NCBI GenBank assembly: GCA_030704615.1
Contig: CM060734.1
Span: forward strand, 12,152,001 to 12,216,000
From: Takakia lepidozioides
Taxonomy: Eukaryota > Plantae > Bryophyta
Length of the DNA stretch: 64,000 bases
Direction: 5' to 3'
Below the pieces are notes generated by a model. The model did not search any database. It was not told the origin of the DNA and was given only the letters and a program-made list of their open reading frames with translations. Both the position numbers and the translations under genes were made by a program. This document shows positions 3,646 to 29,241 of this stretch, piece after piece. Each line of letters opens with the position of its first letter. Within the stretch, counting starts at the first letter, position 1.

Positions 3646-4039
3646 CACTACAACAGATCGCGGTATATCTGACTACCGAGCCGCGGTAGTCATGGTTTCC
3701 TAACTTTGACCATGACTTCCCTGTATTTTTGGGCCAAATGGGGCTTCACGTAGTCGTTGAAATGACTACGTGACCACGTGGTCCTCTGGGCGACTACTTT
3801 GGTAGACGTCGTCATGACTGTATGGCTCCGCACTAGATGGAAGGGTGGTCAACGAGGTTGACCAGCGCGAGCTTGCCACCAAATAGTCGCTGGAATGACT
3901 TCTAGTGCAAGCTTGGTAACCAAAATGTTTAAAAATTTAAGAAGTTACTTATAGGGTTGCCCATTAGAGGACTGGGACTTGGCCTCTTTTTGGCTTTTTT
4001 TTCTCCTGAGCATTTTCTTAGTAGTATTGAATCAAGAGA

Positions 4040-4140
4040 TGAGAGATGGAACGCGATGATCAAAGGATATGTAGAGGCGTGGGATGGAGGCTTTGCAGAG
4101 CAAATGATGCAGGAAGGGGCGAAGCGCAACCTGCACCGCA
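4040..4140 (+). pseudogene. PPR motif fragment
   Basis: Reads RDERWNAMIKGYVEA..EQMMQEGAKRN, a degenerate P motif. Confidence 0.6.
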
Positions 4141-4143
4141 ACC

Positions 4144-4675
4144 GCAAATGTGGGCTCTTGGCTCCTTTTAGTACCATGATTTGGTATTCTTCCTGATGTT
4201 TACAAGGTTCTTGGGAGAGTCAGCTTGGTCTTAGCAGTCCGTGTTTCAATCGACGCCCGCTCAGCTACACCGTGGTGGTTCTCACAGACTAATCCGACAT
4301 TACCTGACTACAAACACAAGCAGCAGACACAAGAGGTCATCTTGGGTTCATGGTCAGTCAAATCCTCCATGGGTCATGACACAAGGTCAAGGACAATGTG
4401 GTGAGGGCACCTTCTTCTTCGACCTATTTCAGCCTGTTTTGACCTCTCATCAGACTCGGCCCTGAATTTCTTCACGATGGTGGGACAACCCCAATCACAA
4501 GGTGTGGTTTTTTCTTAATGTACCATGTGAAGAAGTTAGTCCATCCTGCAAATGTGGGCTCTTGGCTCCTGTTATGATTTGGTATTCTTCCTAATGTTTA
4601 CAAGGTTCTTGGGAGAGTCAGCTTGGTCTTAGCAGGCCGCGTTTCAATCTCTACCTGCTCAGCTGCACCGTGGTG
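4144..4675 (+). repeat. Module R1 (~400-bp unit plus partial tandem copy); inverted copy at 7424-7992
   Basis: GCAAATGTGGGCTCTTGG..GATTTGGTATTCTTCCT.. recurs at 4144 and 4548. ORFs 4241-4465(+) and 7606-7830(-) are near-identical translations. Confidence 0.9.
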
Positions 4676-4689
4676 AATGTCTGTTGGAA

Positions 4690-5440
4690 GCAGATGCAAG
4701 TCAGCATAGGAACAAGTGTGATAAGTAGGGTTGGGTTGTTTGCTGGAACAATTCTAGGCTATCATTGTTAGCTGCTAGCAGCAAGGCAAGGATGTATGCA
4801 TGATTTGTGCAGAGGCATGGATAGCTGAAGGAGCAGGGATAGAGTGTGGGTCCAGATTCATCCAAGAGGGCCGGATTTCAAGCTCCAGATTACCTATGAC
4901 TCCCTGTGGAAGGATAGCTACAAGAAACATGCATGGGTAGATGGTCAACTGGAAGTCGCAGCAGCAGCGGCACAATTGATAAAATGTGGCACTGCTACTC
5001 AAGGCACCTTCTTCAACACATTTCGCCTTGTTTTTTCCTCTTATCAGAATCAGCCCTAAATTGGTGAGGGTACCTTTTTTTTTCAACCTATTTTAGTCTG
5101 TTTTTCCCTCTCATCATTAGGGGTTGGGGTGTTTGCTAGAAGAAGGCCGGATTTCAAGCTGGATCCATTGCTACAAGAAACCTGCATGGGTAGATGATGA
5201 ACTGGAAGCCGCAGCAGCAGCGGCACAATTGATAAAATTAGGCACTGCTAATGAAGGCAACCTTCTTCAACACATTTCACCCTATTTTCCCCTCTTATCA
5301 AAATTGGCCCTAAATTTTCATGTTGAATTCTGCAAGTTACTGGTTGAGTGAACCTTTGATAGTTTGCAATGCGTGTGCAAGCCTGGCACCTCTGGAGAAG
5401 GGAAAAGAGGTCCATGGCAACATTGTCAGAGCTAGCAATA
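4690..5440 (+). repeat. Module R2 copies (unidentified, possibly exon-derived) plus a PPR fragment
   Basis: The ..GGATAGAGTGTGGGTCCAGATTCATCCAAGAGG..GCTACAAGAAACCTGCATGGGTAGATGGTCAACTGG.. module recurs at 21280-22385, 24700-26375, 27604, 28040 and 62085. 5360-5435 reads VCNACASLAPLEKGKEVHGNIVRA (PPR). Confidence 0.85.
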
Positions 5441-6496
5441 CAGATCCACCCAACGAGCTTCTATCTGTTTGAGTTGAACCCTTGAATCATCATCAAAAGA
5501 ATCTTACAAATCTCTCACCTTCCTCTATTCCATCTCTCTCACACAAATAGCCAGATTGTCATCCATTGTTGTCACACTTGTGTTGGTAACCAGCTAGACT
5601 CCTGCAAAATCAGCTGTGAGTAACTATGGCCACTTCATAAAGAGACTGCAAAGGAAAAAGCATTGGAGATGGAGAGATAGAGATGGAGAAGACTAAGTGG
5701 CAGACTTGTCCATAGAGGAAAATACTCAACAAACCTCTTGGTTACTGAGAGACCTTCTCCACTTGTCAAACAGGGATGAGTCTGAAACAACATCGACCGA
5801 GACCAGGGAGCTCTCACGAAACACGGCAGATGCAGATGACACAATTTGCAGTCTTGCTGCTACCAGCAGCCCTGTGAGTAGAGCCCCTCCTAAAACACTG
5901 GCCAGTGCTGCTACCCACAAAGACAGTCATCATTTCAGTTTGATTGGATGTTTGCATTCATGCTCCACCAGAAAGTGCCACATACACATGCCATTCGCAT
6001 GTAAGTATCTCCATACTACTACTATTGAGCCCAAGCCTTGATGTGATGTTGCTTGGATGGCCATGGAAGATTATTATAACAATCACCAAGGAGCCTAATA
6101 GGCATTATCACAACCTCAAAAGCCCTGGCAAAAGCACTTCCAATTAATGTACTCTTCATTGCCCCTATGGTCTGCACCCTCTCAACAACTACGTGTGTGG
6201 GTGCAAGCTGGATGGAAATTAGCAACAACAATATTTCAATCTCCTTGCACATTCAGTCCCAAAAATGCCTTCCTTACTGCTGACCTAAGCAATAAGTTGT
6301 ATAGAATAAGTTGATACTTAACTTACCCAAATGTCAAAGTTTCCATTAATACCTGGAAGTACTAATCACCACATCCCTCATCTTCTGCAACCCAAAAGCG
6401 AGTGAAACCTAATCCCAGATTCCATTCAACCCTAAACCCTGTACTGCCTGAGACAATGACACGAGCAGAAATGCAGCAAATGAGGATGTAACTCAC

Positions 6497-7134
6497 AAGC
6501 TGCGTTGATATACTGCTATGGTGAGCCGAGCGGCCTGGAATAAGAGTCTCGACTATGGTCATGAGTGCTTGGCCCTTAGCAAGCTCTTCGGGGCAGTATG
6601 GCCACCATCTGCAGCCATAGCTGCAATCGCCTGCCATGGAAGAGCATCCCCATTCACCTCTAACGTGTATACATCATTCCTGTATGCCCTGATCATTGGA
6701 TATGCCTTTGATCTCTCCAGTAATTCTCCCTTCTCCCTTTCAGTGGTGTAGTTCCTCATGTTCCCGACATTGTTCTTCCATTTACTCGCCTGACTGTCAC
6801 TACTGTCAATTTTGTTGTTGTCCTCATATTGTCCATGGCTCTCCTTTTCAGTGGCACCGCTCGATGGCTGAGCTCGAGCCTGAAAGCAGCAGCATTGCCG
6901 CGTACCAGTGAATTTTGTGTGGCGAAACAAATTTGTCATACTGTGAGTGTATTCTAGGAAGGTCTATTAGGTGATGTCCGATTGCCACTCCTCTCGAGAA
7001 TGTGGAATTGCATCTAGTTTCCTCACATGTGTGTCCTTCCCTCGTATAGTTCCCAGAGCATGGATGTAAACTACACCAAGAGTCTTTTCTACAACCACGT
7101 TCAGAAAACAACACGGACTGTAAAAGAAGTCCAT
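6497..7134 (-). pseudogene. Captured first exon of a plant gene resembling the ANU10/At1g28530 plastid-protein family
   Basis: Reads AYPMIRAYRNDVYTLEVNGDALPWQAIAAMAADGG, then after a frameshift EELAKGQALMTIVETLIPGRSAHHSSISTQL, ending at a CTT|GTGAGT donor (6496). Internal stops are present. The family assignment is from recalled similarity only. Confidence 0.5.
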
Positions 7135-7423
7135 AATGAAGCCTTTGGTCCCTTACTAAACCATCTTGGCCAATACTCCCAATACATCGACATAAACTGC
7201 ACTTTTGTCGTAACCTTTGATGTTGCTGAGATGCAATAATATAATATGTTATACTAGTGGCTGAGAATTGCAGGGATTCTTGTGGATATGTCACATGCAT
7301 TTGCCTCTGAATCAATTCCCCTGAGGAGGAGCAACCAGGGGTCTGAGCACCGAATTGCATCTCTCCCAAAGGGGAATTCAAGCTCGGGTCTTGTGGTAAC
7401 TTCCTCTAGTACCATCTAGTACT

Positions 7424-7992
7424 TGTAAACATCAGGAAGAATACCAAATCATGGTACTAATGGGAGCCAACAACCCACATTTGCACTATGGACAAACTTC
7501 GTCACATCGTACATTAAGAAAAAGCCACACCTTGCGTTTGCGGTTGTCGCACCATCGTGAAGGATCTTTAAAAAACTCATGCCAGCTCTGCTCCGTGCTG
7601 CAAATTCAGGGCCAAGTCTGATGAGAGGGCAAAACAAGCTGAAATAGGTCGAAGAAGAAGGTGCCCTCACCACATTGTCCTCGACCTTGTGTCATGACCC
7701 ATGGAGGATTTGACTGACCATGAACCCAAATGGACCTCTTGTGTGTGCTATTTGTGTCTGTAGTCCGGTAATGTCGGATTGGTCCATGAGAACCACCACA
7801 GTGCAACTGAGCGAGCAGAGATTGAAACACGACCTGCTAAGACCAAGCTGACTCTCCGAAGAACCTTGTAATCAGCAGGAAGAATACCAAATCATGGTAC
7901 TAACAGTCGCCAAGAGCCCACATTTGCACGATGGACAAACTTCTTCACATCGTACATTGAGAAAAAGCCACACCTTGCGATTGCGGTTGTCC
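7424..7992 (-). repeat. Module R1, inverted copy
   Basis: Reverse complement of 4144-4675 with scattered substitutions and a short extra segment. Confidence 0.9.
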
Positions 7993-8070
7993 ATCCGCTT
8001 CCCATAGTAGTCGATGGCCACATCATGCACCACATCTTCATGCCCCGATTCTAGGGTTTGAGTCCCTGTC
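7992..8070 (-). pseudogene. SEC13: N-terminal fragment of SEC13 (WD40 COPII/nucleoporin), fused to R1
   Basis: TQTLESGHEDVVHDVAIDYYGKRM matches the highly conserved Sec13 N-terminus (GHxDxxHDxxxDYYGKRLAT) and is truncated immediately afterwards. Confidence 0.85.
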
Positions 8071-8098
8071 TGCCCCCTATCCCACCAGCTCCGCTCGT

Positions 8099-8260
8099 CG
8101 TCTCTCATGATCAGACTTGACACTAAAACAAAACAAACATAGCTCCCCCCTGTTTGACGTCTCTCATGATCAGACTCGACACTATAAGAAAGCAAACACA
8201 ACTCCGTCTTGTTTGTCATCTCTCACGATCAAACTCGACACAAAGAAAACAAACAGATGG
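8099..8260. repeat. Tandem 3 x ~60-bp repeat
   Basis: TCTCTCA(T/C)GATCA(G/A)ACT(T/C)GACAC..AAACA occurs at ~8101, 8160 and 8219. Confidence 0.85.
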
Positions 8261-9128
8261 CAGGGGAGACAAAAAAACGCTAAGTCCCCTACTCATGACT
8301 GGATGGATGAATGTAGCGATAGATGGATGGATTTTGGGTTTTCCATCAATACATCCATCCATTCATTTGTTTTTCCATTTTTTGGCCATTTTAATTTCAT
8401 CCATTCATCCAAAATGAATCATTAAATGAGTTTCACTGTTAGTTCATCCAATAGCTGCAAGCTCAGGGTTTGCATTATCATTTGTTCCTATGTTCATCCA
8501 ATAGTTGCCAGCAAGGCGTTTGTTGTATCATTCGTTCATACGTTCATCCAGTGCACAAAAGTTATGTTTGATACATTCATCCAATAGTTGCCAACAAGGC
8601 GTTTGTGTATCATTCGTTGAGATAATACAGTTGTTTTGTGTCACTAACCTTAACTAGCAGTCGATTAGTTTACTATTAATCTGCTGGGTCAGTGAAACAG
8701 TAGTTAAATAATTTTACTACTTATTATCCTCATACTTAACACTGCGACCTAGCAGCCCTAAATTCGAGCACATTCATCCTAATTCATCCTAGTTCACTCA
8801 TCCTAATTCATCCTAATCATTCATTCATCCATTCATTACTTCATTCACAGGGTGTGGCTTAGTGCCCGCGAGCAATGATATGTTGACACGTCGTCATTTG
8901 CAATCACATCCTGCATATGTTTCATCCATTTATGTTTGCATCGTCCACGTAGACACTCCTTGGGCGACCGGCAATCGCCACGTGCAGTCGTGAATACTGG
9001 CAGTCATACATTCACATGCCCACATCATCTTGTTGCAGTTTTGCCATGACTCCTAGTCGTATCTACCATCTTTCCCTATCTGGTCAAACGTGTTTGACCG
9101 CAGATCCTGACGTGGCGGAGGTACAAGG

Positions 9129-12100
9129 TGTCAAGTTATTTTACCACTAGTGTGAAACTAGCTAGGAAATAGCTAGCTTTTACATATTGACAATTGGGAT
9201 TGGCCCAAATGTCAATCCAGGTGTCATGGTTTTAGTCATGGTTATCTAGAATTATCTACTTCTAGTTAACTAGGACATTTTAGATATTTATATTTATATT
9301 TTGTGTGTTGGGACTTCATTTGGTCTCACATGCCAAGTGAGGTGTCGAACCTCACTTGAGACATGGAAATAGGTTTTCCCCTTGTGAGTGTTGAGGAGGC
9401 TCATCTTCTTGTAGTTGAGCCTCCATGAGCTTCTCTCACCTCCATAGCTCTAGGTATTGAGAGGGAGTGTGTTGAGGGCTTTGTAGGGTGGATTCCTTTA
9501 GCAAAGGTGCCCTTGGCTTGACTTAGTTTATGTGATAGAGTGGATTTCACTTGGAAGGACTAGGGCTTGTTCTTCATGTGATTGCTTCATGCTTTGAGAG
9601 CTTTCATTGTCTTCTACTTCTCTCATTTCTCATCTCTTATCACTACAAGAATATCACCTTATGCTTGTGAGTGCGGAGTGTAAGGATTAGTTTTGCACTT
9701 GTATTTTAAAGAGGTTGAGAGCTAGGAGAATTTAGCTCTTGTATCACAAGGCTTGCAAGGGGTTGCAAGGAAAGGTGCTCAAGTATTGCCTGCACCAAGG
9801 AGTTGGAGAGCTTGAGAAGAAAGCTCTTGAGTTACAAGATTTTGCAAGGATTGTAAGGAGGAAGTCTTGTGTGTGTGGAAGCATGGATTCTAGGGTTTGA
9901 GAATCCTTTGTATGCATTATGGAGTCGATGGTGTGCGCCATGGCTTGTGGAGAGTGACTAAAGGCTTGTTAGTGCTCATTTCACTATCAAGCTAGGGTTA
10001 AGCAAGTTCAAAGTGTGGATGTTGTGGAAGAGAAGCCAAGGAGCTATATATGCTTGGGCTTGAAGACAACAAGGGCAAGCACTTGGAGAGCACTAAGAAG
10101 CTCAAAGAGGTTTTGAAAGGGAGCATGTGAAGAAATCTTCCAATCATGGTGGTGTGGAGCCAAGCTTAGGGTGCCATTGGAAGGGCTTGGAGAACATGTG
10201 GTGGGAAATCATCATTCAATGTATGCATAGCTTCACCCTAACTATGTAATGTGACAAGAGGGGGAGGCAATACTTGGCTATTCATGCTCTTGGTAGTGCG
10301 AGCTTTGTGGTGGATAGTTGACCAAGCAAGTGGTGCATGTGTGGAGCATGCTCGCTTGAGTTTGTAAGTTCAAGTTTGAGAAGGGGAGCTCTTGAACTAG
10401 CAAGAGGTGAAGGCCTTTGAGATCCATTTGTGTGTGAAGTGGAGAGGTGTTGATTCATGTTATGATGAAGGAGAGCAATACATAGGCCAAGAGGTCATGA
10501 AACATGCATTCAAATGACCACGGGGAGCACATGGATGATGGATTGGTGCAAGACCCCAAATGAGGTATATGGCGTGAGAGTGGGATCCAAGGCGGATTGC
10601 TTGGGAGCATTATTGTAAGTTACAAGCATTGCTCCTACACATTGAGATAATTTGTGTTGATTTGGAGCAATTGTCAAGTGATGAGGAGACAAATGCATGA
10701 TTGCTCGGCAATGGAGATATGGTAGTTTGCAATCAAATCCCAAGGACTAGAAGGGGGATTGATTTGGTGGACAATGACTTGCAAGTTGAGTTGGACCACT
10801 CTTGGTTGCACATTGGGGTGGAAGAGAGCAAGAAGATGCCTCTTATGACCACCTAGAGACCATATTTTTGCTTGAGTAGAAGCATAGAAGTCAAGGACTT
10901 GCATTCTAGCTCTTCATTACAAACCCTAGTAGTGTATGCTCAGACTATACCTCTGTTAGTATACCAAACAGGAGCTTGTCCCTTTGACTATACCTCTGTT
11001 GAGGTATCACCATATGTGAACCCTAATGTGAGACTATACCTCTGTTAGTATACCAAACAGGAGCTTGTCCATTTTACTATACCTCTATTGAGGTATCACC
11101 ATATGTGAACCCTAATCAGCTCAGACTATACCTCTGTTAGTATACCAAACAGGAGCTTGTCCCTTTTACTATACCTCTGTTGAGGTATCACCATATGTGG
11201 ACCCTAATCAGCTCAGACTATACCTCTGTTAGTATACCAAACAGAACCCTCATTTTCAGACTATACCTCTGTAAATGTATCATCAACATAAGGGACCCTA
11301 GCAACCTCAGACTATACCTCTGTTAAGGTATCAACAGTGAAAGGACTTAGTGAAATTTAAGGGCCTTTGGAGGATTGTTTGGAAGATATTTGAGGGCCCT
11401 TGGAGGAGTATTTGGAGGATCTTTGGGGTCATTGGAGGAGTGTTTGGAGGATCTTTGGGGTCCTTAGAGGACCCTTTGAGGAGCTTTGGTGGACAATGTT
11501 GAAGAGCTCTTGAAGGATTGATTGAGGGATATTGAAGGATACTTGCCACGGCCATACAAGCGAGTGGATAGAGACAGGAGGGAGAGTGGTGGGATGAGAG
11601 CATTATGGGGTTAGGAATTGCTTTAGTTTCTCTTCTCCATAGTCTTTCACCCTCTCTGTAGGCCAAAACCTTTCCGTAGGTGGAGGCAAGAGTCAGTCCG
11701 GGTTTGGGCTGGGGTGTCTTTGCAGGAGCGACACTGTGGAGTGTTTTTGGTGTGGGGGAGTTGTTGTCTTGATTTTTTTGTGTTTGGATCCCCTCCACAC
11801 CTGCATGCTTGACTGTGCGCCATGTTAGCTTTGTGTGGGCGCTTGTTTTCATAGGAGGTTGGTCCGGATTTGATCACCGGCCAATCCTAGAGTATGTTGT
11901 CGGTGGTGAGGCTGGAGTGATGACCAGCAAGACCACCAGTGTTTCTTCTATGGTGAGGCTGGGTTGATGACCAGCAGACCATAAGAGTGCTTGCGGTGGA
12001 TGCAGGTGCAGGTACAGGTCTACGTTAGAAACCTATTATTCCTGCTTGAACCAGTAGCCGCAACAGGTTCTTTACCCGGTTACCTTGTAGAAAGTGGGGA

Positions 12101-12148
12101 TTAGAGACAGGTTGACAACCGGTTGGGTTGTGAGTTTTCATCACGGAG
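9129..12148 (+). mobile_element. Putative 5' LTR/leader of the DNMT-bearing retrotransposon (boundaries uncertain)
   Basis: Non-coding region directly upstream of gag. It starts near a TG and shares motifs (GGAGGCTCATCTT, TTGGCTTGACTT, GCATGTGTGGAGCATG) with 17350-19050. No PBS was identified. Confidence 0.45.
10938..11333 (+). repeat. Tandem array with nine ACTATACCTCT(G/A)T cores (~92-bp dimeric unit)
   Basis: Cores occur every ~42-50 bp (10944, 10987, 11034, 11076, 11126, 11168, 11217, 11260, 11311). Alternate units form ATACCTC-TGTT-GAGGTAT hairpins. Confidence 0.9.
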
Positions 12149-12513
12149 GTGCCACCAGCTGCTGAGGGGAGTGCCGGTACAAGCACCAGCGATACTAGTG
12201 GGTACACAAGACAAGGTGTGCGGTTTAGGCCACTTTCACCTTCAGTGTCTTCTGAGGAAGGTTCAGACTCGGAGTCAGGAGGATTCTCGCCGAGGGTGCA
12301 AGTCATTTCCGTGCCATTGTTGTGGGACACGATGGAGGAGATGTATGGAGCTACCAAGGGGCCACGTAGGTACTCTTGAGCTGTGGGCACCATCGAGCTT
12401 GATGACTTTATACAAGAGTTTGACAGTTGGTGTGATTTGCAGCAAATGCGCAATCCACAACTGTTTACGCCCTTTATGGCGTGGAAGGGGCTATTCCAGC
12501 ACCTTGAAGGCCC
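12149..12513 (+). pseudogene. Disrupted N-terminus of gag
   Basis: Reads MEEMYGATKGPRRYS*AVGTIELDDFIQEFDSWCDLQQMRNPQLF..WKGLFQHLEGP. There is an in-frame TGA at 12377-12379 and a frameshift at ~12513 into the 1267-aa ORF. Confidence 0.7.
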
Positions 12514-15500
12514 ATGGATGATTACCATGAATTTAGGCGGGGACATGCGGTGGAGATTGAGGAGTGGCGAGAGTATTGGTCACCTAACTATGTCTCAATC
12601 ACTAGAGGCAAAAGGGCAGCGGTGACACCAGCAGCTACACAAACATCTCCAACTACAAGCACTAGTAGTGGAACAAGTAGTGCCGGCACTTCTGCAGGTG
12701 GTACCAGTTCAAAAGGTGCTACTACTCCTCCTGCCACAATTACAACACATGTGCCTAGATTCAACCCGGTGGTGGAGTTCTTCCAGGAGTTGCGGAGGAA
12801 CTACCAAGGTGTACGGACAGAGAAGCTGCGAAGTTTGCAAGACTTCCAGCGCAAATCCAGTGAGAGCTTGCGAGAGGCCTACACTCGTATGAGGCGCTTG
12901 ATAAGTGTGACCCAAGGGATTACTGAAGCTCAGGCAGTCCAGTTCTGGTATGGAATTTTGAACAAGGAGCTCAAGAGAAGGGTGCGGGATGCAACCCTGT
13001 TACAAGCGGCCCAACCCACATTAGCGGATGTGTTTCTGCTGGCTGAGCGGATTGAGCTCAACATGGTGGAGGAGCGAGTTGTTACCATTGGATTTGGCAA
13101 GGACATGCCTGCACAAGGTGCAGCTGCCAGCCAACAGGTACAAGGGACTGCCCAACAGCGTGGTCAGGGGGGCAAGGTTGCCCAACCCAAGTTCCATGGA
13201 GCTTACAATGGACCTCAGGTGCAGAGGCCCGTGACATCTTTTGCAGGCCAACAGCAACCAGGGGTGATATGTTGGACATGTGGAGGACCCCATGTCAAGA
13301 GAGATTGCCCAGAGAGTGGCAGAAGGCCGGCACAAGCACAGCCTGCACAGTTGCAGTGTGGGCATTGTGGCAAGCATGGGCATGGAGCTGCCCAGTGTTA
13401 TGACTTGCATCCTGAGTTGCGCCCAGGCCAGTTCCAAGGGAACAATGGTGGCCGGGGGCGAGGTGGACCAGCCCAGAGAGGACGAGGTGGTCGGGCACGA
13501 GGTGCAGGCCAAGGGCAAGCTCAACATGGCCAAGGACGCGGAGGTCAGGGTGTTGACCAAGGCATGGCCAACCGGCTTCAGCAGTTAGAGCAGAGGCTCG
13601 CTGCCATGGCTACAGCTCAGGTGGTACCAGCTCCCAGGCAGGATGGTCCACCTCCTACTCCTGAGGGAGGAGATATGGGAGGCATGGGATTCATGTGCGG
13701 AGCAGCACTACCACTAGTGCAGGTGGAGTCTGCTGCAGCCGTGACTCGAGGAGCAGCACGAGTTCCTGAGCCACGAGGTGCAGAGGTGGAATTGGATCCA
13801 CACCGTGGGGAGGCAAGCCGTCAGGCGAGGCTTCCTCAGTCATTCACATTGGCGGAGATAGTGTCGACGCCATCCATGGCACCTAGTTCTCGCCCGACTG
13901 TTACCGAGGCGGAGGTTACTATGCCATTGGGGAGAGCTACACGTGCAGCACCGACACCTGCTACCAAGGCTAGTGCAGCCGGTGTGTTATCGGGGGCAGC
14001 CACCTCTGTGTGTCAAGCCCCACTGTTCTCGGCAACCATGATTGCGACGCCGGGGGTAAGACCAGCTGCAGTGTTCAGACTAGCAGCAACACTCTACGAG
14101 AGTGAGGAGGTCACTTTATCTTCTGCGGAGTTACTGGAAGGTGTAGTGGCAGAGGGATCTTCGGATTTGAGGGTCAAGACTGCCATGGCTGCGCCACGGC
14201 AAGCTGCAGCTGCCAGGTTGACGGAGCTGCCAGCTAGACCAGCCTTTGAGCACGCCATGGTGACACATGGAGTTGTCTTGTTAGACAACCAGGGAGGCAT
14301 TTTCACTTTGAGTGGACCGGCAGGCAAGAAGTACCGGCCACTGCGGGTCTTGTTGGACTCAGGAGCTCAGCCACTGATGTTGGGCAGAGCTGCTATTGCA
14401 GGTTTGGGCTTCATGGAGGCGGATATGGAGCCTTGTCCTTTCCAGATACAGACATCTCTGGGAGGATCAGAGCAGGCTCGGGGCATGACACGGCGTGAGT
14501 TGGCCATTGGACTACAACCAGATCATCCTGTAGATGGCTCAGTGATGCGAGCCAAGGCCATTGTGACAGACGCGGTCTCTTACAATGTCCTTGTTGGTGG
14601 GGCAGTGTTATATCCCATGGGCTTCACCCTGGACTTTTGGGAGGAGTCAGCATCCTACAGGCCTGGATGGCAGTCAGGGGATGGTCGTCGTGCACAGCTC
14701 CCTGTGACATTCATTGGGGGTATTGCGGCTGCCCAGCGGGGCAAGATGCCAACACTAGCCGCCTTTACAGCTGCAGTTAGTTGGCCTGGAGAGTTGTTGG
14801 AAGGCAATGCCCATGCAGAGGATGTGCCACCTCCAGCAGAGCAGGATGACATGCATGGTACGGCGGAGTTGTCTGCCATGGTTGCTCACACTCCATTATG
14901 GGGTACGAGCAAGGATTTGCAGCAGGCTGCTGATGGACGGGTAAAACAAGCTTGGGTAGAGGCCTTCATACCGTCAGGAGAAGAGGAGAGTGCGGTGATT
15001 GCACCAGGACCACCTCAGTTGTCGCCATTGGACACCACACCTCTTGTGTGGCAGTGCCCGGATGAAGGCATATGCCTTCTGGACTTGTTTGGCGGGATCA
15101 GCACTGGATTGGCTGCAGTACTGCAGGCAGGTGTACGAGTTCGATGTTACCTGTATGTGGAGAGGGATGAGACTACACGACGCGTCTCACTGTGCCATGT
15201 TGCTCAGTTGGTACAGCAGTACCCTGACTTGTTGCCAGTGTCTGCAATTCGTGGATACCAACAAGCCTTGCCAGCAGACATTTCGTTGCTGGGGGCGCAG
15301 GATTTGGAGGGGGTTGGCTCCATTGATCTGGTAGTGGCAGGTTGGCCCTGCCAAGGGCATTCATCAGCCGGGCATGGCAATGGATTGCGAGACTCGAGGA
15401 CGGGTCTGTTTTGGGAGATGGTGCGGATTTTGCGCCACCTGCAGCTTCATCAAGCTGTATCTCCAGTATACATCTTGGAGAATGTGCCACTGATGGGTGA

Positions 15501-17349: not shown

Positions 17350-19050
17350 TGTGGTATAGCTTTCTAGGATTGTGTGCTTAGATTGTGTGGTGGACAACGA
17401 TGTATGTTGTGGCACGATGCTTAGATGCACGACACAGGGGTCAAGGCAGATTTAGGCCCTGGAGTGGTTATCTTCACGGCAAGCACGGGAGGCTCATCTT
17501 TCTCGAGTTGAGCCTCACCGCGCCTAGCTATGGCGCCATAGTGTGGATTCCCCATGGCGTGGGGTGCACTTGGCTTGACTTGTATTTGAGTGATGAGGTT
17601 ATATATGCATGAGTTTATGCTTCAGCTTTGTGAGCTCGCATGAGCTTGTGCTTGTATTTTTTTTTTTTTATCACTCAAGAAAGATGAGCTCGTATCTGTG
17701 AGTGCCAGATACGAGTTAGTTGTAGCGCTTGTGGTTTTTGCTTGAGAATGAGAGAAACCAGGTTGTTATGCAAGGAGCACCGTGGAGCTCTTGGTTGTTA
17801 GAAGTGGAGGCGATGTGGGTTACGAGGTGGTAGACCTTGGCATTCGATCTTCAGCTTCAGAGATGAAAGCACCATGCTGCAAGATTGCAAGACCAAGCGA
17901 AAGGGCTGATTTGGCTTGGGGCAAATCAGTGCACTTTGTGGAGTATGTTGAGATTGGGTTTCAATCTTGAGCTTCAGCATTGAGAGGGCTCTTGTCATGG
18001 CAAGAGCAGGGCTAGAACAAGAGCTAAGAGGTGCGGCAAGGCCATGGAATGTGCACCTAGGGTTTCAGAGCTTGGAAGAAGAGCTCTTGCACCACAAGAG
18101 GAGTGTCTTGTGGCTGGAAATGTAAGCCTTAGGGTTTCAGGAGCTTGGCAAGGGCTGTGGAGTGCTTAGTCTTGTCTTAGAGAGCATCAAGGAGCTAAGG
18201 AGCCAAGATAGGGGGCTGATACCTCTTGTGTGAAGAGGTTGCATGTGTGGAGCATGTATTCAGCTCATTGAAGCTTCCATCTTCAAGCTTGGAGGGCAAG
18301 CAAGGAAGAGGGAAGGGCTGACTTCCCTTATGTGAGAGCAATGCATGTGTGGAGCATGCTTTTAGCCTATTGAAGGCTTGTACTTTCAGGTTTGGGAGTG
18401 CAAGAAAGGAAGGAAGGGGCTGGTTTCCCTGTAGGGCATGTGTGGAGCATGCTTCCAGTCCGCTGAAGCGTGTATTTTCAGGTTGGTGGGTGCAAGAAAG
18501 AAAGCAAAGGGGCTGATTCTCTGGTGGTGAGAGTGGGGCATGTGTGGAGCATGCCTTCAGTCCATTGGGCTTTTGTTTTCAAGCTTTATAGAACTAGAAG
18601 AGAAGGTAAGGGGCTGATCTGCTCTTATGTAACAGTCCGACACTTGTAGAGCGTGTTCTGAGTTGGGGTTTCAACCTCAAGCCTAGATAGAGCATGGCTC
18701 TTGAAGTGGCAGATGTAGGGGGCTGGAATAGCCTCTAAGACAGATACTATGGCCAAGGGAAATGTTTGAATGAGTGCTCACAAGGGCTGGAAACCAGCAA
18801 GGCTTGGTTGTTTGCCATTGAGTTTAGTGGCGTGTTTGGGGAGAAGGCTTGGTTTGTGGCAACCATCTTCCTCATGGCTTAGGGCTACTATTGGTGGTGT
18901 GTGGGAGCCGAAAGAGCAAGAATACCTTGCTGATTTCTTCACAGCCACCATAGCTCGGTGCAAAGAAGCCTAGAGTCCAAGAGACACAAACCCTAGCTTG
19001 GCGTGGCTAAACCCCTTGGAGAAATGCCTAAACTGCCATGAGTGGCTTGT
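17350..19050 (+). mobile_element. LTR-like non-coding segment related to 9129-10900; truncates the DNMT element
   Basis: Begins TGTGGTATAG at the RT break. It has patchy motif identity to 9395-9680 and internal ~100-bp repeats with GCATGTGTGGAGCATG at 18241, 18343, 18436 and 18538. Confidence 0.55.
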
Positions 19051-19051
19051 G

Positions 19052-19160
19052 GGGCTGTGACGGGCTGTGATAGGCTGTGATGGGCTGTGGTGGGCTGTGA
19101 CAGGCTGTGCCCTGTGACCTGTGTAGGGCTGTGACAGGCTGTGCCATGTGGCCTGTGGGT
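19052..19160 (+). repeat. Degenerate 10-bp tandem repeat (RGGCTGTGAY)
   Basis: Reads gggctgtgac gggctgtgat aggctgtgat gggctgtggt gggctgtgac aggctgtgcc... Confidence 0.85.
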
Positions 19161-21273
19161 GAATCGGAAGCGGAGGGAAGTGAAGTTTGAGGCAGGCACG
19201 GAGGTCTGGTTGAACATCAAAAATTTCCGACTACCTCCGGAAGTGAGTCCAAAGTTCGTACCTCCATATGCGGGACCCTTTCGCATCCGGAAGGTTATGA
19301 ATGAGGATGTGTATGAATTGGAGTTGCCGGCAAACAGCAAGGTGCATCCAGTATTCCACGTCTCCCTTTTGAAGCCTTACTTCAAAGAGAAAGCGCGTCC
19401 AAATCGGCATCAAGTGTTGCGTCCGCCACCTATGCTGTTAGATCATGAAAATGAACCTGAGTATGAGGTGGAGGCAGTACTTAAGTCGAGGAGGTTCAAG
19501 AACCGAGAAACAGAGTATCTCGTCAAATGGAAGGGCTATCATCATGTGGAGGCATCTTGGGTGCGTGCCTCAGAAATTGGAAACACATCCGAGGCGGTTG
19601 CAGTTTTCAAAGGGTGACCTCAAAAATGGAAGAAGCGTTGATGGGGACATCAACCTTGGAGCGTGGGGGAGGAAATGCATGCTTAGCCCGGCTTAGCTAG
19701 CTTAGGAATCCGATTGCAAAAACTTGTATTGTACAAAAATTTGTTATAAAGGAAATGGATTCCAAATGTTGTGCGTCCTATTTTGTTTGGAATGGTGATG
19801 CATGGTGTGGTTGGCTAGTGTGTAGAATGCATGCTAGCTTACAAAAGTGGGAGAGGTAAATTGGGTTAATCGTGTGTTTGCGCAGTGCCAAAATCGGGTG
19901 ACTTCCATCCAAATGGGCAAGGAAACTTGCGCGTTCTTTAGGAGTTCACGTGCTAGTGCGCACCTGGCGCGTGCGCATACTATAACTGCGCTACCGAGGG
20001 GGTTGCTTTGTACTGCGGGCTAACGCGGAAGCTACGTGCTTCCGTTCACGTACTATAATCGTGTAGCCTTGGGACGAAGTCGTAGTGCGGCTTCGGCGTG
20101 TTCCCGTACCTTAGGCCAACATTCCGAGGCGGACCCAATTGTAGTGATTGGGGCGTGCGGTTGGTTCAAGGTTATCTTCCTAGTCAAAGAGGGTTCGAGG
20201 TGAACCCTTGCTCAAGGTGATGCCGAAAGCGGCATCATGAGCGGTCGCAAGCAATGTTGTTGCAGTAAGGCGATTCGATCCTCGGGGAGGATCGTTCCTT
20301 GGCCTTGAAGTAGGCCAAGAAGAGTGCACTAGGAGGAGCTTGAGAGGTTCCACCCTTGGCCGGGACTTGGAGGAAATCGGCCGAACTAGCTAGTGGAGAG
20401 TAGAGTCAAGTGTGGGGTTTGGTTCTTTGCCATGGGACGCCATGGTACGGAAACAAACTCCTTGATGTGGGACGCCACAACTTGGATGTTCGTTTCCACA
20501 AAATGTACAAGCCGATGAGGACATCGACTCCCTGTTGGTAGGGGTGTGTGTCGCGGCCCTTTGCCTTGAGGGTAGGGGGTCGGGACACAAGAGGAGCTGC
20601 CCCTGTGGTGGGGGCAGTGGCAGCGATAGGTATGGGGGGCTGAAGCACCCTTGAGTGCCCAAAGCACTCAAGGAGGCGGAGGCACTCACTAGGTGGAGCC
20701 CCGCACACCGGGTTGCGGTGGGGGTGGCTCCACAAGGGGTGGTGGTAGCTTAGCGGGACTTAGTGGGGGTGGCATAGGACTCACCCTGGGGCAGAGACCT
20801 CGTGGTGGGAGTCGTGGGGAGTCTTGGGACTCATCACGGTCCATAGGGGCCGTGGTGAGTGGGCCAAGACTCACCGCGACTCATCACCGGGAGTCGAGGG
20901 TGTTCGTGGTGGTTCGCCATAAAATGGCATGGTTGTTTGTGAAACCCCCGCGGACAGCTACAGAAGTATATATAGGGAGTAGTAACCCCGAGAATGGTGC
21001 AAGCCCGCTGGTGACCAAAAGCTAGTGAGTAAGCAAGCGAGCCGGAAAGTGACCAAAGAGTGGGGAGCTGTTCCGGACTGCCAACTACCAAAGGGAATTC
21101 CGCTAGTTCTAAATCATTGGAGGGTTCTTTGGGAGATCAAGGGGGGACTGTTATGTCCTGGTGAGCAGCCGAAGCTCCAAGTTGGCCCGGCGGCCAGGTT
21201 GGGAGTTAGGCGCGCGCATCAAGCGAGTAACTATGACTTGAGGGGGGAGCTTACCGAAGTGAGGTGCGCGACA
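19161..21273 (+). mobile_element. 5'-truncated older copy of the chromovirus: integrase C-terminus/chromodomain, 3'UTR and 3' LTR (20549-21273)
   Basis: ORF 19141-19617 is nearly identical to the C-terminus of pol 33026-36229 (GPF motif, chromodomain). The LTR runs TGTCGCGG...GCGACA. A premature TGA at 19615 corresponds to CGA in the intact copy. Confidence 0.93.
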
Positions 21274-21279
21274 CTCTAT

Positions 21280-24200
21280 AATCTAACAGGCATTCAGCTT
21301 TTTGCCTCGGTTGTCCCACCATTGACTGGGTCAGAAAAGTATTCATTCCACAACTTCTCCTCATCTCAGTTACACGGTTTTGGATACTTTCCTGCTGTCA
21401 CTTTGGCAGTATCATATCAAAGTCAAGTTCCAAACTATCAAAGGTTCACTCAACCAGCTAACTTGTAGAATTCAACATGAAAATATTTTAGGGCCGATTC
21501 TGATAAGAGGGGAAAACATGTGAAATGTGTCGAAGAAGGTAACTTCATTAGCAGTGCCTGATTTTATCAATTGTGTCGTTGTTGCTGCGGCTTCCAGTTG
21601 ACCATCTACCCATGCAGGTTTCTTGTAGCTATCCTTCCATAGGGAATGATAGGTAATCTGGAGCTTGAAATCCGGCCCTCTTGGATGAATCTGGACCCAC
21701 ACTCTATGCTGTTCCTTCAGCTATCCATGCCTCTGCACAAATCATGCATACATCTTGCCTTGTTGCTAGCAGCTAATAATGACAGCCTAGAACTCTTCCC
21801 GCAAACACCCCAACCATACTTATCACACGAGTTCCTATGCTGACTTGCATTCACCTTTTTGCCTTGATTGTTCAACCATTGACTTGGGTCGGAAACATGT
21901 TCATTTTGGAGCTTCTCCTCGTCTCTGTTATCTGTTTTTCGATACTTTCCTGTTGCCACATTGGCAGTATCATGTCAAAATCACTCCAAAACTACCATAG
22001 ATCCACCAACAAGCTAACTTACAGAATTCAACTTGAAAATTTAGGGACGACTTTGATAACAGGGAAAACAGGATGAAATGTGTTGAAGAAGGTGCCTTCG
22101 TTAGCGGTGCCTGGTTCTATCAATTGTGTTGCTGCCGCTGCTGTTTCCAGTTGACCATCTACCCATGGAGGTTTCTTGTAGCTATTTATCCACGGGGAAT
22201 CAGAAGTAATCTTGTGTTTGAAATCGGGCCCTCTTGGATGAATCTGGACCCACACTCTATCCCTGGTCCTTCGGCTATCCTTGCATGTATACAAACCAGG
22301 CATACATCCTTGCCTTGGTGCTAGCAGCTGACACTGACGGTGTGGAGTTCTTCCAGAAAACACCCCAACCCTACTTATCACACTAGTTCCAAATCTGAAA
22401 TGCCTCTGCTTCTCTTTGTAATCCAATAGGCATTCACCTTTTCTAGAGCTGCTAGGCTTGCACACGCATTGCAAACACAAACAAACGTAATGTGGTTGGG
22501 CTTCACCCCTTCCTGCATCATTTTGCTCGTATGTCTCCAAAGCCTCCATCCCGCAACCCTGCTATGCATGTCCTGCGATCATTGCATTCCACAACACCAC
22601 ATCACATTCAGCCATAATGTCAAACACCCCCCTTTGCATCTTCAATACTCCCACATTTGGCATACATATCCAGCAAGGCAGTGTTCAGAATGACATTTGG
22701 TACAATTCCAGCTTTGACAATGTCACCATGGACCTCTTTGCCATTTTCCGGGGCTACCAGGCTGGCACATGCATTGCAAATGCCATCTGATTGGGCTTTA
22801 CCCCTTCCTACATCATTTGCTCATAGGTCTCCAAAGCCTCCATCCCACGATCCTGCTGTGCATATCCTGCGATCATCGCGCTTCACGACACCACATCACG
22901 TTCAGCCATTTTGTCGAACACTGCCTTTGCATCTTCAATGCACCCAAATTTGGCATACATGTCCACCAGGGCAGTGTTCAGAATGACATCTGGTACAATT
23001 CTAGCTTTGACGATGTCAGCATGGACCTCTTTGCCATTTTCCAGGGCTGCCAGGCTCGCACACGCATTGCAAACGCAAACAAATGTAATGCGGTCGGGCT
23101 TCCCCCCTTCGCACATCATTTGCTCATAGGTCTCCAAAGCATTCATACCACACCCATTCTTGGTAAATCCTGCCAACATTATATTCCACGTGATCAAAGA
23201 TCGTTAAGGGATTCTGTTGAACACTTGGTGAGCATAGATGTACACCAGGGGAATGTTCAGAATGACATGTGGTACAATTCCAGCTTTGATAATGTCAACC
23301 ATGAACCTCTTTGACCATTCCCAGGGCTGCTAGGCTTGCATATGCATATTATAAACACAAATGAACATGACCTGGTCTGGCTTCATCCCTTCCCACATCA
23401 TTTGCTCTTAGGTTTCCAAAGCCTTAATAATCCCATACCCATGCTGCACATACCTTCAATCATGGCACTCCAAAACACCACATCTCGTTCAGCCATATTG
23501 TCAAACTCTCCCTCCGCATCAGGCTTGCTGCACCCACATTTGGCATACATGTCCACCAGGGCAATGTTCAGAATGACATCTGGTACAAATCCAGCTTTGA
23601 TGATGTCACCATGGACCTCTTTCCCTCCAGAGCTCCCATGGTTGCACACGCATTGCAAACACAAACACACGTGATGTGGTTGGGCTTCACCCCTTCGCGC
23701 AGCAGTTGCTCATAGGTCTCCAAAGCATTCCTACCACACCCATGCTTGGTAACTCCTGCCAGCATTATATTATATGGAGACAAGGGTGTTGAGTAGAAAA
23801 ACATTTGGCGTGCATCCACTTTGGATAATGTGAGTGTGCACATGCTTTAATCCAGCGTCCAGACCTTCCATCTTGATGCACTTAAGCAAGGGACAGACAT
23901 GCGTACCTGAATCTGCTGAAATGCCTCATTGGTTTGAAGTATGTAGAGCCTATGTCAGTCTGTTTGCCGCAAAACATCTTCACATGCCCAGAAGTGCCAG
24001 AAGAGGCATTGTGGACTCCCTCTCTTGATCCTCTTTCAGAAGCTGTGGTCATGGTTGAGGTGCCTGGTTTTATGAACTGTGCCACTGCAGCTACAGCCTT
24101 TAGTTGACCATCTACCCATGCAGGTTTCTTGTAGCTATTGATCCACAGGGAATCACATCTGGTATAATTCCAGCTTTGGCGATGCAACCACGCACCTCTT

Positions 24201-26500
24201 TGCCCTTTTCCAGGGCTGCCAGGCTTGCACACGCACTGCAAACGCACACAAACCTGATGTGGTCGGGCTTCACCCTTCCCCAATCATTTGCTCATAGGTC
24301 TCCAAAGCCTTCATCACGTGCCTTTGTTGTGCATACCCTGCAAGCATTGCATTCCATGACATCACATCTCGTTCAGCCAGAGTGTGGAAAACTCCCTTCC
24401 CATCCTGAGTGCACCCACATTTGGCAAACATGTCCACCAGGGCAGTGTTCAGGATGACATCTGGTACAATGTCACCATGGACCTCTTTCCCCTTTCCCAG
24501 AGCTCCCAGGCTTGCACACACATTGCAAACACAAATAAATGTGATGTGGTTGGGCTTCACCCCTTCGCACATCATTTGCTCATAGTTCTCAAAAGCCTCC
24601 ATCCCACACCCTTGCTGTGCATATCCTGCAATCATCACACTCTAAGACACCCACGTCTTGTTCAACCATACTGTCAAACACTCCCTTCATACATGTCCAC
24701 GAGGGTTTGTGGCAGCAGGAAAGTATCCAAAAACAGATAACATAGCTGAGGAGAAGCTCGTTGGTGGATCTATGGTGGTTTTGGAGTGATTTTGACATGT
24801 TGCTGTAGGTAGGGTTAGGGCGTCAGTGTTAGCTGCTTCAGCTGCTAGCTGCAGCAAGGCTGAGGATGTATTCACGATTTGTACACAAGCATGGATAGAT
24901 TGTGGGTCCACATTCATCCAAGAGGCCCGGATTTCAAGCTCCAGATTACCTATCATTCTATGTGGAGGATAGCTACAAGAAACAGATGGTCAACTGGAAG
25001 CCCCCGCAGCAGCGGCACAATGGATAAAATCAGGCACTACTAACGAAGGCACCTTCTTCAACACATTTCACCCTGTTTTTCCTTCTTATCAGAATTGGCC
25101 CTAAATTTCCATGTTGAATTCTGCAAGTTAGCTGGTTGAGTGAATCTTGTTTGGAGTGACTTTGATATGATACTACCAATGTGACAGCATGAAAGTATCC
25201 AAAAATAGGTAACAGATATGAGGAGAAGTTGTGGGATGAATAATCTTCTGACCCCAGTAAATGGTGGGACAACCGAGGCAAAAAGGTGAATGCTTGTCAG
25301 ATTACAGAGAGTAGCAGATGCAATTGACCATAGGAACTAGTGTGATTAGTTGAGTTGGGTGCAATTGTACTCTCTGTTTCCTCTCTGCTTCTGTTTGCTA
25401 TTCAAAGGTAGGATTCCTGCCCTAAGTTTAAATTTCAGTCTAGTGCCGAGAGTGGGTAGACCCTTGAGGTCATCCATGATGTCCTCCCCCATGTCACAAA
25501 CTGGAAACAAGTCCAGGGAAGTTTTCTACCTAACTTCATTTTCATCAGATAATTTTCTGGAAACAGACATGGCTTTGGACACTACAACCTCTAAGTCAGT
25601 AGGGTTGGGGTGTTTGCTGGAACAATTCTAGGCTGTCATTGTCAGCTGCTAGCAGCAAGGCAAGGATGTGGGCATGATTTGTGCAGAGGCCTGGATAGCT
25701 GAAGGAGCAGGGATAGAGTGTGAAGATGCTTTGTGAGGCACGCAGACTGACAGAGGCTCTACAGACTTTAAACCAACGAGGCATTTCAGCAGATTCAAAT
25801 ACATATGTCTGTCTCTTGCTTAAGTGCATCAAGATCAAAGGTCTGGAAGCTGGAAACATTAGCACATGCAAAGAGGTTTGGTTGCATCACCAAAGCTGGA
25901 ATTGTACTAGATGTGATTCTGAACAATACTCTCGTGGGCATGACTGAAGGAGCAGGGATAGAGTGTGGGTGCAGATTCATCCAAGAGGCCCGGATTTCAA
26001 GCTCCAGATTACCTATGATTCCCTGTGGAAGGATAGCTACAAGAAACCTGCATGGGTAGATGGTCAACTGGAAGCTGCAGCAGCAGCACAATTGATAAAA
26101 TCAGGCACTGCTAATGAAGGCACCTTCTTCAACACATGAGACCCTATTTTTCCCTCTTATCAGAATCGGCCCTAAATTTCCATGTTGAATTTCTGCAAGT
26201 TAGCTGGTTGAGTGAATCTAGTTTGGAGTGACTTTGACATGATATTGCCAATGTGACAACAGGAAAGTATCCAAAAATAGGTAACAGAGATGAGGAGAAG
26301 TTGTGGAATGAATACTTTTCTGACCCTAGTCAATGGTGGGACAATCGAGGCAAAAAGGTGTATGCCTGTCAATTACCAGATGTCATTCTGAACACTGCCC
26401 TGGTGGACATGTATGCCAAATGTGGGTGAATCGAGGATACAAAGGGAGTGTTCAATACTATGGCTGAATGAGATGTGGTATCGTGGAGTGTGATGCTTGC
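21280..26500. pseudogene. Patchwork of PLS-class PPR gene fragments interleaved with R2 modules, both orientations
   Basis: Repeated ALVDMYAKCG..EDAK.VFD.MAERDVVSW.AM.AGYAQQG.G.EALETYEQM..EGVKP..ITFVCVCNACASLAALE.GKEVH at 22430-23990(-), 24150-24700(-), 25720-25940(+) and 26375-26500(+), with many frameshifts and stops. No E/DYW domain was seen. Confidence 0.9.
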
Positions 26501-26829
26501 AGCCACCGCGCTACCTGTCAGCAAGACAACTCCCAAACTCCAGTCCTTGACTGCCACAATGGGGTAAGGGTTCCCTACCTGTAATTTTCCATTTTGCACA
26601 CATCGAGTTTGTGTAATGGTCCTTAGACATATTCTTAGCGATGTTAGTTTGTTTCACATATGTCAATGTTGTGGTTGCTATGGTATTGCCTGAAAGCTTG
26701 CTCATGTATCTTTTGCCGTTTTTGGGCTGGATGGCAGTTGAAGGTGGGTGACCAAGTCCGGCCAAGCCAGTGTATGCATCTTCTGCTCAGGCATTTGGAA
26801 GTCTACTTGGACTTTGCAGCTTTGTGCAT

Positions 26830-27603
26830 TTTTGTAGCGGCACCGGATTAGATTATGGAACGGATCTCTAAACATTAAGTCACGTTGTATTTGAATTGAT
26901 GTTCCAATTTCAAATGTGCTTTCATGTTTCAGTGGTGTTTTCGTGTGTTTTCAATGGTGATTTCATGTTTCAATGCTGATAGAGTCAGGCCCATGACTAC
27001 GGTCATGTACACGACTACCTCCCATCCACAGAGCCTCCGCCACGTGCCACTTTCACCCCTCGTGTTCGCCTATACTCGTGCCACGTGCAGTATCTAGAGT
27101 GCGCCATGGAAGTCATATGTTCCAGTCATAACGACCACCCCACCCCCATCCTGCATAATTTGACTCCACGTGTGGACCTAGGATTAAACGTCCGAAGTCA
27201 TATATGCCAGTCACGAAAGACCCTCCCGCTCCATATTGTCATGCCACGTGTCATGTCCAGTCTAATCCACGTGTTATCCTGGGGTTAATCCGCGGAAGTC
27301 GTATATGCCAGTCGTGAAGACCCTGTTGCCTTCCCTTTGACATGACATGTGGCATATCCCTTCCGTTCCACGTGAAGCCGACATGGATTCGCAGTCATTT
27401 ATTATGGTCTTATCAATGACTATGATTAGGCGTCCCCGTTGCCACGTCAACAGTGAGCTCCACGACTGGCAGATATGACTCTATGGCGCTTACGACTCAT
27501 TTGTCACAACTGACTAGGTTTATCTGACTAGGCATTCATGCAGTCATAAAAGGCTGATACAACTAGAAAATAGCAGACGTAAAAGCCAGAATCTGTTGTA
27601 GTG
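26830..27603. mobile_element. Internal orphan CACTA right terminus with subterminal repeats
   Basis: Ends ..AATCTGTTGTAGTG (reverse complement CACTACAACAGATT) and is preceded by many ATGACT/AGTCAT/CCACGTG motifs. It abuts an R2 module. No matching left end with a TSD was found. Confidence 0.7.
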
Positions 27604-29241
27604 AGCCCTCTTGCATGAATCTGAATCCACATTCCATCCCTGCTCCTTCAGCTATTCCTGCCAAGAGAAAGAGAGAAGGAGGGCACGACAGGGAGAGGGT
27701 AGCCAGTGCTGTACTCATTGTTTGGGGGGGTGGCTGGCATGTTGCTCACGAGCTGAAGCAAGCAGGCTGCGCCGCCGCCGCAGCAGCTAGCCAGCCACCA
27801 GCAGAGAGCTCCCGCATTTGGTGAGTATTCAGCGATGCTCCCGCACTTAACATACATGTTGACGAGGCAGGCGTTGCATAAAAAAATGTCTGGGTTAAAT
27901 CAAGTTTGGATAAGGTGAATGTGCACCTGCCCACCAGCTTCCACGCTTTTTCATCTTTATGCTAAAATGTCTCATCGGTTTAATTAAAGGGGGCAGGGCA
28001 GCGAATCGACATATTACGTAGCTTTGTGCTTCAAATCCAGCTTTGCTCGACGAATCTGTACCCACACTCAACCCCTGCTCCTTCAGTTATCCATGCCAAG
28101 AGAGAGAGGGAGAGAGAGTGTAGGGCAGGGCAGGGCATGGAGAGGGAAATCCATAGGTTCATATGTCGTTCAGAGAATGAGTGAATTTTAAATAAAGCCA
28201 CTGTGAGGGCAACATGTGAGGGCAACATATATGTTATGCTGCCCCCCTTAGACTGTTTTGAGGAGCCTGATTTTGGGACTGTAGTGCAATTTTGTAAATC
28301 TGAGTGACACTTGTTTAAGACAATATCTTGTTACTCTACTGCTATCTTCAGTGCCTATGTAGTGTCCTTTGCACTTTGTCAAACTGTTGTTTGAGGAGCT
28401 AGATTTTGGGACTCCTGTGCTATTTTGTAAATTTGACTGGCAGTTGTTTAAGACAAGGTCTTTTTATATCTTAAGTTCCTATGTTATGTCCTTTGCACTT
28501 TCTCACTTTGTTCTTTCTTGTGATTCCTTGCCTGTGAATGAAGCATTGATTTGTTCTAGTATAGGTAGTAAGCTGCAATAGGTAGAATCACTATAGCAGT
28601 AGAAGTATAGATTACAGAAAGACATGTGCATGACTAGGGTTCTACTATAGGTAGTAAGCAATATCACTTTAACATCACTAAACAACCTTCAATCATGCAT
28701 TGACACATGTCATATCCAACATAAAACACCTGGCAACGAGCTCCTATAAGCATAGTCGTGGTTCTGACTGTTATATACATTTAACAAACCCCTCATATGA
28801 TGCCACGTGTCCACATATCAGGATGTTTGTAGTCACGACAATGACTGCAAGACCTCCTCATTATATGCCACGTGTCCAGATATTAGCATGTTTGTAGTCA
28901 GGATAATGACTGTAGGACCTCCTCATGGATATGCCACGTGGCAGTTTCTGGAGACGTCATATGGCGCACATCCACAAAACCTCCTGGACTTATTAAAAAA
29001 AGACACGTGTACATTTTGCAGCAGCACACTAAGTCATGTATGGTAGAAATACATATGACTGCCAAATGACAGTGAGATGTATCACTTGGTATCATCTGAC
29101 TACAGTCATCCATGACCGACCATCCTGTACTCATTGTATTCACTTGGTTTGCACGACTTGCAGCTAGCGCAGTCATATGTACGATTTATGACTACGGGAT
29201 AGTCATATATACAGTCATATATACCGCGATTTGTTGTAGTG

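Follow-up and report, generated by a model that had tools for sequence, protein, structure and literature searches.

Structure of the locus

The window, a stretch of 64,000 nt from the bryophyte Takakia lepidozioides (contig CM060734.1), contains an interval at 3646-29241 that interrupts a LINE retrotransposon and is bounded by short terminal inverted repeats (TIRs) and a 3-bp target site duplication. The interval encloses host-gene fragments, internal subterminal arms and the remains of LTR retrotransposons. The features are as follows.

2790-3645, minus strand: 3' side of the host LINE, in register across the insertion (blastp, tblastn)
3643-3645: left copy of the target site duplication, GCA (sequence inspection)
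3646-3910 (inner edge approximate), plus strand: left arm, with a 29-nt TIR starting CACTACAA and a subterminal motif array
3930-5433, plus strand: decayed remnants, with PPR and PDF (OSB-type) motifs, of a family present in many copies (tblastn with P0204/P0206)
5735-6873, minus strand: ANU10-like gene fragment, with a frameshifted exon 1, an intron, part of exon 2 and a later exon
7422-7992, minus strand: repeat, in inverted orientation, of the PDF/PPR fragment at 4144-4675 (82-91%)
7986-8060, minus strand: N-terminal 25 codons of SEC13 (phmmer E 5.8e-6 to a SEC13 chain)
8876-9128, plus strand: putative third subterminal arm of CACTA type, lacking a TIR and truncated by the LTR at 9129
9129-17348, plus strand: LTR element A, with a 5' LTR starting TG and a reverse transcriptase (RT) cut at about 17348
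17350-19161, plus strand: part of a second LTR (A'), related but divergent (local score of 317 against the LTR of element A, shuffled maximum 151)
19162-21273, plus strand: 3' end of a chromovirus-type Gypsy (fragment B), with SH3, chromodomain and LTR
21274-26502, both strands: scrambled PDF-motif and PLS-type PPR fragments
26503-27603, minus strand: complete right arm of a CACTA from a related subfamily, internal to the element, its TIR ending at 27603
27604-28250, plus strand: PDF/PPR remnants, beginning mid-PDF fragment directly after the internal TIR
28250-29241, minus strand: outer right arm, with a subterminal array (28700-29212) and TIR (29213-29241)
29242-29244: right copy of the target site duplication, GCA (sequence inspection)
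29245-31400, minus strand: 5' side of the host LINE, with RT (Pfam, tblastn)

On the 5' side of the LINE part of the endonuclease region (about 30590-31070) is inverted, and on its 3' side an integrase fragment related to relatives of the DNMT-Gypsy is inserted at 2310-2790. The endonuclease region also holds a complete chromovirus-type Gypsy (31401-38366) with identical LTRs and a TAAAT duplication, which is a very recent insertion. Further downstream, 1.75-kb direct repeats (98.7%) at 41918-49642 surround ORFs of 185-366 aa; apart from a weak match to RVT_1 at 46508-47605 (E 0.022), Pfam recognises none of them. This is an unclassified LTR- or DIRS-like element.

Termini, target site duplication and host LINE

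The outer TIRs (3646-3674 and 29213-29241) are identical at 27 of 29 positions, a match with a chance probability of ~1e-14, or ~5e-5 over all position pairs of the window. Both the TIRs and the flanking GCA duplication had been given in the preliminary description, and both were confirmed. Removal of the interval together with one GCA copy restores the ORF2 frame of the LINE, and the empty site reads, on the minus strand, ...AFWSSA|ML*IVGRALVANQVL, as had also been described. The rebuilt site was compared with 120 LINE proteins fetched with the RT piece to the right of the element, and 43 blastp alignments span the join. Among the 37 viewed, 31 are ungapped over the 10 residues before and the 14 after it and six are gapped. 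LINE copies do therefore join at this point, with a zero-offset register in 31 of 37 alignments, and the stop codon at the join corresponds to Ser or Thr in most homologs. In tblastn without any joining, residue 817 of P0004 aligns with the final LINE codon of the right flank, and residue 821 with the position four codons into the left flank, which gives the exact register independently of the reconstruction.

Public DNA contigs are identical to the window at 2699-3673 and 29213-30200 (0 differences). They reach 28-29 nt into the TIR and break off there, as contigs of a repeated sequence would, which leaves them 2-3 letters below the 31-letter threshold for bridging. The runs concerned (X1 and X2) may be the window's own source, so these junction contigs are not independent of it. 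That a genuine CACTA element lies here is practically certain.

Assignment to the Pack-type CACTAs

The element carries three marks of the CACTA superfamily: TIRs beginning CACTA, a 3-bp target duplication (the LINE rejoins with one GCA copy) and subterminal arrays of short direct and inverted repeats, the last being a described CACTA trait (available text of PMC8978399). The density of subterminal motifs is 33 per kb in the left arm and 33-43 per kb in the arms, compared with 3 per kb window-wide; these motifs were picked from the arms themselves, and the leave-one-out test given below is therefore the fair one.

The transposase scan covered 226 stop-to-stop frames (minimum 38-45 aa) at 3646-12500, 17340-19161 and 21274-29241 as well as three long retroelement ORFs, and Pfam detected no transposase in any of them, in agreement with the preliminary description of the cargo. 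The sole related match, to Transpos_assoc (E 0.049; 14.2 bits, where the cut-off is 27.7), sits inside PPR sequence. Outside the element, 91 frames of at least 75 aa at 38400-62100 also contained no transposase. Thus, within the frames scanned, the transposase and second ORF of an autonomous CACTA are lacking, and what lies between the ends is host-gene fragments. GT-AG introns are present in the ANU10-like and PDF pieces, and such retained introns indicate capture at the DNA level, as in Pack-CACTAs. Ends, duplication, cargo and the missing transposase together support a non-autonomous Pack-type CACTA, the class proposed earlier.

Captured host-gene fragments

Fragments of at least three host genes (PPR, SEC13 and ANU10-like) had been recognised before, and this count is borne out by Pfam, phmmer and matches to Sphagnum proteins with DUF4335. 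The bulk of the cargo consists of PPR fragments, with Pfam E values down to 2.5e-16, mixed with PDF motifs. The latter had escaped the preliminary description; a profile-free search with the cargo motif retrieved OSB-type proteins with PDF motifs, and the motif is described in the available text of PMC6963530. In P0204, three PDF motifs are naturally fused to a PLS-type PPR array carrying an E motif, which makes a single gene family the probable source of both the PDF and the PPR pieces; a limited literature search found no description of a fusion of PDF motifs with PLS-type PPRs. The piece at 3930-5433 has only a weak PPR match (E 0.04), and loose contig ends continue from it into PPR sequence. 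Within 21274-26502, a GT-AG intron of about 164 nt splits a PDF motif.

The ANU10-like fragment consists of 6873-6455 (residues 12-158 of P0173), 6207-6103 (part of exon 2, residues 145-181) and 5923-5735 (a later exon, residues 413-475); homolog residues 182-412 are missing. A GT-AG intron occupies 6496-6208, and the Sphagnum run-through ORF P0172 leaves the frame at the same place. All three pieces match Sphagnum proteins carrying DUF4335, and clusters with Sphagnum proteins are the sole matches. DUF4335 is a weak domain reported for ANU10 (available text of PMC4036511), and the label ANU10-like is taken from this domain of the Sphagnum homologs. A contig guessed to be RNA-type tracks 6446-6108 at ~94% and diverges where exon 2 is cut in the window, which hints at an intact ANU10-like parent gene.

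PDF (OSB-type ssDNA-binding)-PLS PPR sequences appear to be very abundant here, at 3930-5433, 21274-26502 and 62083-64000, and are also prominent in runs guessed to be RNA. On the side of the 62083-64000 mosaic that lies within the window there is no CACTA end, which shows that the family also occurs outside these elements. A 192-nt piece of the cargo (25439-25630) recurs inverted, at 95%, in the outside PPR mosaic (63051-63242), 37 kb away; local capture, or membership of one subfamily, may be behind this. From the SEC13 piece to the cut arm (7888-9128), summed contig depth is high (about 5,400 at 8025 in X1), and the SEC13 fragment may thus be common to many elements.

Internal arms

A search with the first 13 nt of the left TIR returned three matches in the window (3646, 29241 and 27603), compared with 0.21 expected. 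The third, identical over these 13 nt, ends an arm that has its own subterminal array and is oriented like the outer right end. In another study (P2), a contig tracks 27181-27605 and then continues into other DNA, which identifies 27603 as a true terminus of a related subfamily. This end adjoins a PDF fragment at its middle, the second half of that fragment being absent, and no partner or target duplication was found for it in the window. The sequence CACTACAACC at 25580 was rejected as its left partner; it stands in the same context at 63101, in the shared 192-nt piece, and its flanks differ.

The segment 8876-9128 is the top-scoring one outside the known arms in four of four k-mer models, with scores of 36, 31, 19 and 17 against 95th percentiles of 15, 12, 7.5 and 7. 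Models trained on any two or three arms recovered the held-out arm, the sole further peak being at 8876-9126, and in these leave-one-out tests the four arms share one motif vocabulary. Linear alignment of 8876-9128 to the other arms is not significant, so that its status as an arm is inferred only. A single left arm is thus accompanied by three arms of the right type (the outer arm, that at 27603 and the putative cut arm), an arrangement missed in the preliminary description.

The LTR nest at 9129-21273

A single retroelement had been implied for 9129-21273. This did not hold: the segment contains the remains of three LTR elements, its ends are of different families without twin LTRs, and its flanks (CAAGG and CTCTA) share no target duplication. 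To account for it one must assume a minimum of three insertions plus a deletion, and 30, 41 and 42 contigs continue into intact relatives at 17348, 19161 and 21275, respectively. The size and complexity noted earlier do belong to a real element, but both were overstated, since 12,145 of the 25,596 bp are this nest of three broken LTR elements; 13,451 bp remain as CACTA.

Element A has an ORF (12508-16314) encoding Gag, protease and a C5 DNA methyltransferase followed by an in-frame stop, with Pfam matches to DNA_methylase (E 3.9e-13) and RVT_1 (E 1.2e-31). It contains the motifs LFGG, PC and ENV, which we take to be the catalytic motifs of C5 methyltransferases. As in DNMT-bearing Gypsy elements, the methyltransferase lies in the Gag-Pol ORF upstream of RT. 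The closest proteins are from Calypogeia and Marchantia (65-69%), and identity to a Klebsormidium protein is 34% over 900 residues. The element appears young and high-copy, with relatives in Marchantia, Calypogeia, Sphagnum and Klebsormidium. Both element A and the algal KnitGypsy-Dnmt3 have a C5 methyltransferase in a Gypsy polyprotein, but element A is from a land plant and its RT is cut off (de Mendoza et al. 2018, available text of PMC5890265, for the algal element, which has a DIRS-like repeat layout). Fragment B is 94% identical to the complete chromovirus copy at 31401-38366.

Copies in public contigs

Flank contigs have depths of 55-62 in X1 and 35-36 in X2. Single ANU10-like contigs reach 179 and 134, about 3-4 times the flank, a ratio that could include the parent gene, and single contigs over 27856-28623 reach 96-231; over the remnants at 27604-28250 the ratio to the flank is about 2-3.5. 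Cargo contigs are 94-99% identical to the window on both sides of the nest. Summed contig depth in X1 is 10,000-37,000 for the arms and 180,000-780,000 for the PDF/PPR stretches; such sums are inflated by overlapping contigs and give ranks only, not copy number. The resulting order is low-copy cargo, then repeated arms, then the far more abundant PDF-PPR family. This suggests a few near-identical cargo copies and many arm copies, and a cargo depth of 2-4 times at 94-99% identity points to sister copies. The short public contigs examined contained no second complete element, with arm depth high and cargo depth 2-4 times that of the flank. Metagenome scans gave no match to the outer TIR, and four matches to the internal TIR were set aside as chance: they lie in AT-rich loci with no subterminal motifs and no further similarity.

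Probable composite origin of the element

We favour, with some reserve, a non-autonomous gene-fragment CACTA in an old LINE, likely assembled from several units, with the LTR nest probably acquired after arrival. Composite origin itself is likely. In the model of Catoni et al. (available text of PMC6379663), closely spaced insertions of the same orientation lose their inner ends. On this model, related elements, all oriented alike, would have landed beside or within each other; with the loss of inner ends, host DNA and older arms would have become enclosed by the outer pair. A transposase from an autonomous family member would have recognised the outer ends in trans, and the roughly 13.5-kb composite would then have moved into the LINE. 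LTR elements A, A' and B would have inserted later, a deletion fusing their remains. The arms fit neighbouring insertions that lost inner ends, and nesting followed by deletion fits too; fusion of neighbours and nesting with later deletion are indistinguishable here.

Arrival of the nest later than the last jump is probable. The cargo looks older than element A: an LTR segment of the latter and a contig about 100 times as deep as the flank differ at 1 of 232 positions, while six low-copy cargo contigs differ from the window at 38 of 1354 bases, a comparison that uses one LTR segment and the longest records only and leaves out a seventh, overlapping contig with 6 differences in 147. The nest requires three or more insertions plus a deletion, and the neighbourhood has repeatedly been targeted by LTR elements, the same LINE holding the brand-new chromovirus at 31401-38366 (LTRs identical at 723 of 723 positions). 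Transposition of the whole 25.6 kb as one unit, with the DNMT-bearing Gypsy as a passenger, had been suggested and appears rather unlikely, despite a nest wholly between the paired ends and reported CACTA elements of 16-20.5 kb (available texts of PMC6431247 and PMC2613891). Fragment B speaks for it, in that its 114 differences in 2101 positions (5.4%) from the complete copy, with 18 synonymous and 13 non-synonymous changes in 152 codons, mean that its age could match that of the divergence among cargo copies; its retained CpG (observed/expected 0.78 vs 0.80) favours later arrival instead. Among the contigs listed, none has nest junctions at raised depth, which weighs weakly against a passenger; the 15 of 700 contig joints listed include no empty form skipping the nest, which carries no weight either way.

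Another reading is that only a smaller CACTA jumped into the LINE, with the internal arms and much of the cargo added in place by nested Pack-CACTAs and then trimmed by deletions, so that the composite would never have moved as a unit. The internal end at 27603 cuts the PDF fragment as an insertion would, with the other half of that target absent; a left arm could have been lost through a deletion in the nest, and a contig from another study (26443-26797) bridges the PPR/arm junction at 26502, so that this arm exists with its cargo as a unit elsewhere. However, two nested elements must both have lost their left arms while sharing orientation, and low-copy cargo has a similar depth on both sides; we consider such growth in place improbable. 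Still further down the scale, and hardly credible, is a pairing of unrelated ends of different families with a chance GCA, or an assembly join. A third end in the window does mean that the pairing is not automatic, but that end matches over only 13 nt and has a different flank, whereas the 27/29 TIR match, the duplication and the zero-offset LINE register coincide at the outer ends and the junction contigs agree with the window. The LINE register refutes this reading.

Relation to known Pack-type elements

Comparisons with published elements refer to the available parts of the papers cited. The Arabidopsis Pack-CACTAs (Catoni et al. 2019, PMC6379663) share with the present element TIRs starting CACTACAA, a 3-bp duplication, no transposase and captured chromosomal DNA. 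They consist of terminal stretches of 337-451 bp around one gene-like piece, whereas here 13.45 kb without the nest include three or more donors and visible inner arms; their mobility was observed, and that of the present element is only inferred. Fused elements with internal copies of their own family are also known among the Pack-TYPE elements of rice and maize (Gisby and Catoni 2022, PMC8903248), such as Os-Pack-Mariner groups AB and BB in rice. Pack-CACTAs in these species are mostly low-copy, as here, but the Pack-TYPE examples measure hundreds of bases and come from angiosperms only. Soybean Tgm-Express1 (PMC1947982) is likewise a CACTA with several unrelated host fragments, captured as exons and introns, but it is 5.7 kb long with five donors and was shown to be spliced into transcripts. 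DNA-level, intron-containing capture by TIR elements in a non-seed plant is known from the Pack-MULEs and GingerRoot elements of Selaginella lepidophylla (PMC6839031), which average about 8.6-8.8 kb and belong to superfamilies other than CACTA.

Multi-donor CACTAs, CACTAs of 16-20.5 kb and Pack-type capture in a lycophyte are thus already known according to these sources. The preliminary description had regarded Pack-type CACTAs as known from angiosperms, which is correct for the name Pack-CACTA, but Pack-type capture as such has been published for Selaginella (PMC6839031). In the literature searched, supplements being outside its scope, we found no report of a Pack-CACTA in mosses, liverworts, hornworts, lycophytes or ferns. 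A survey of 23 species (available text of PMC13477047) includes pteridophytes and reports exon capture by all major superfamilies, and its tables may contain CACTA cases from non-seed plants. The words bryophyte, moss and fern are absent from a 2026 review (PMC13317346).

Implications

The element at this single locus is decayed repeat DNA with no sign of function, and today it is probably no more than inert cargo. With it, Pack-CACTA capture is extended to a bryophyte lineage. It retains inner arms, which are predicted by the tandem-fusion model but usually lost, and the model can therefore be tested on sister copies. The PPR-dominated cargo, derived from a seemingly very abundant family, raises the question of whether such elements shuffle PPR modules. 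A bolder proposal, which we regard as unlikely, is that a bryophyte CACTA family builds giant composites by serial fusion, moves at least 25 kb in a single piece including a methyltransferase retroelement, and is a main engine that spreads and reshuffles the very large PDF-PPR family. If this were true, Pack-CACTA activity would feed the expansion of organellar RNA-binding factors in non-seed plants.
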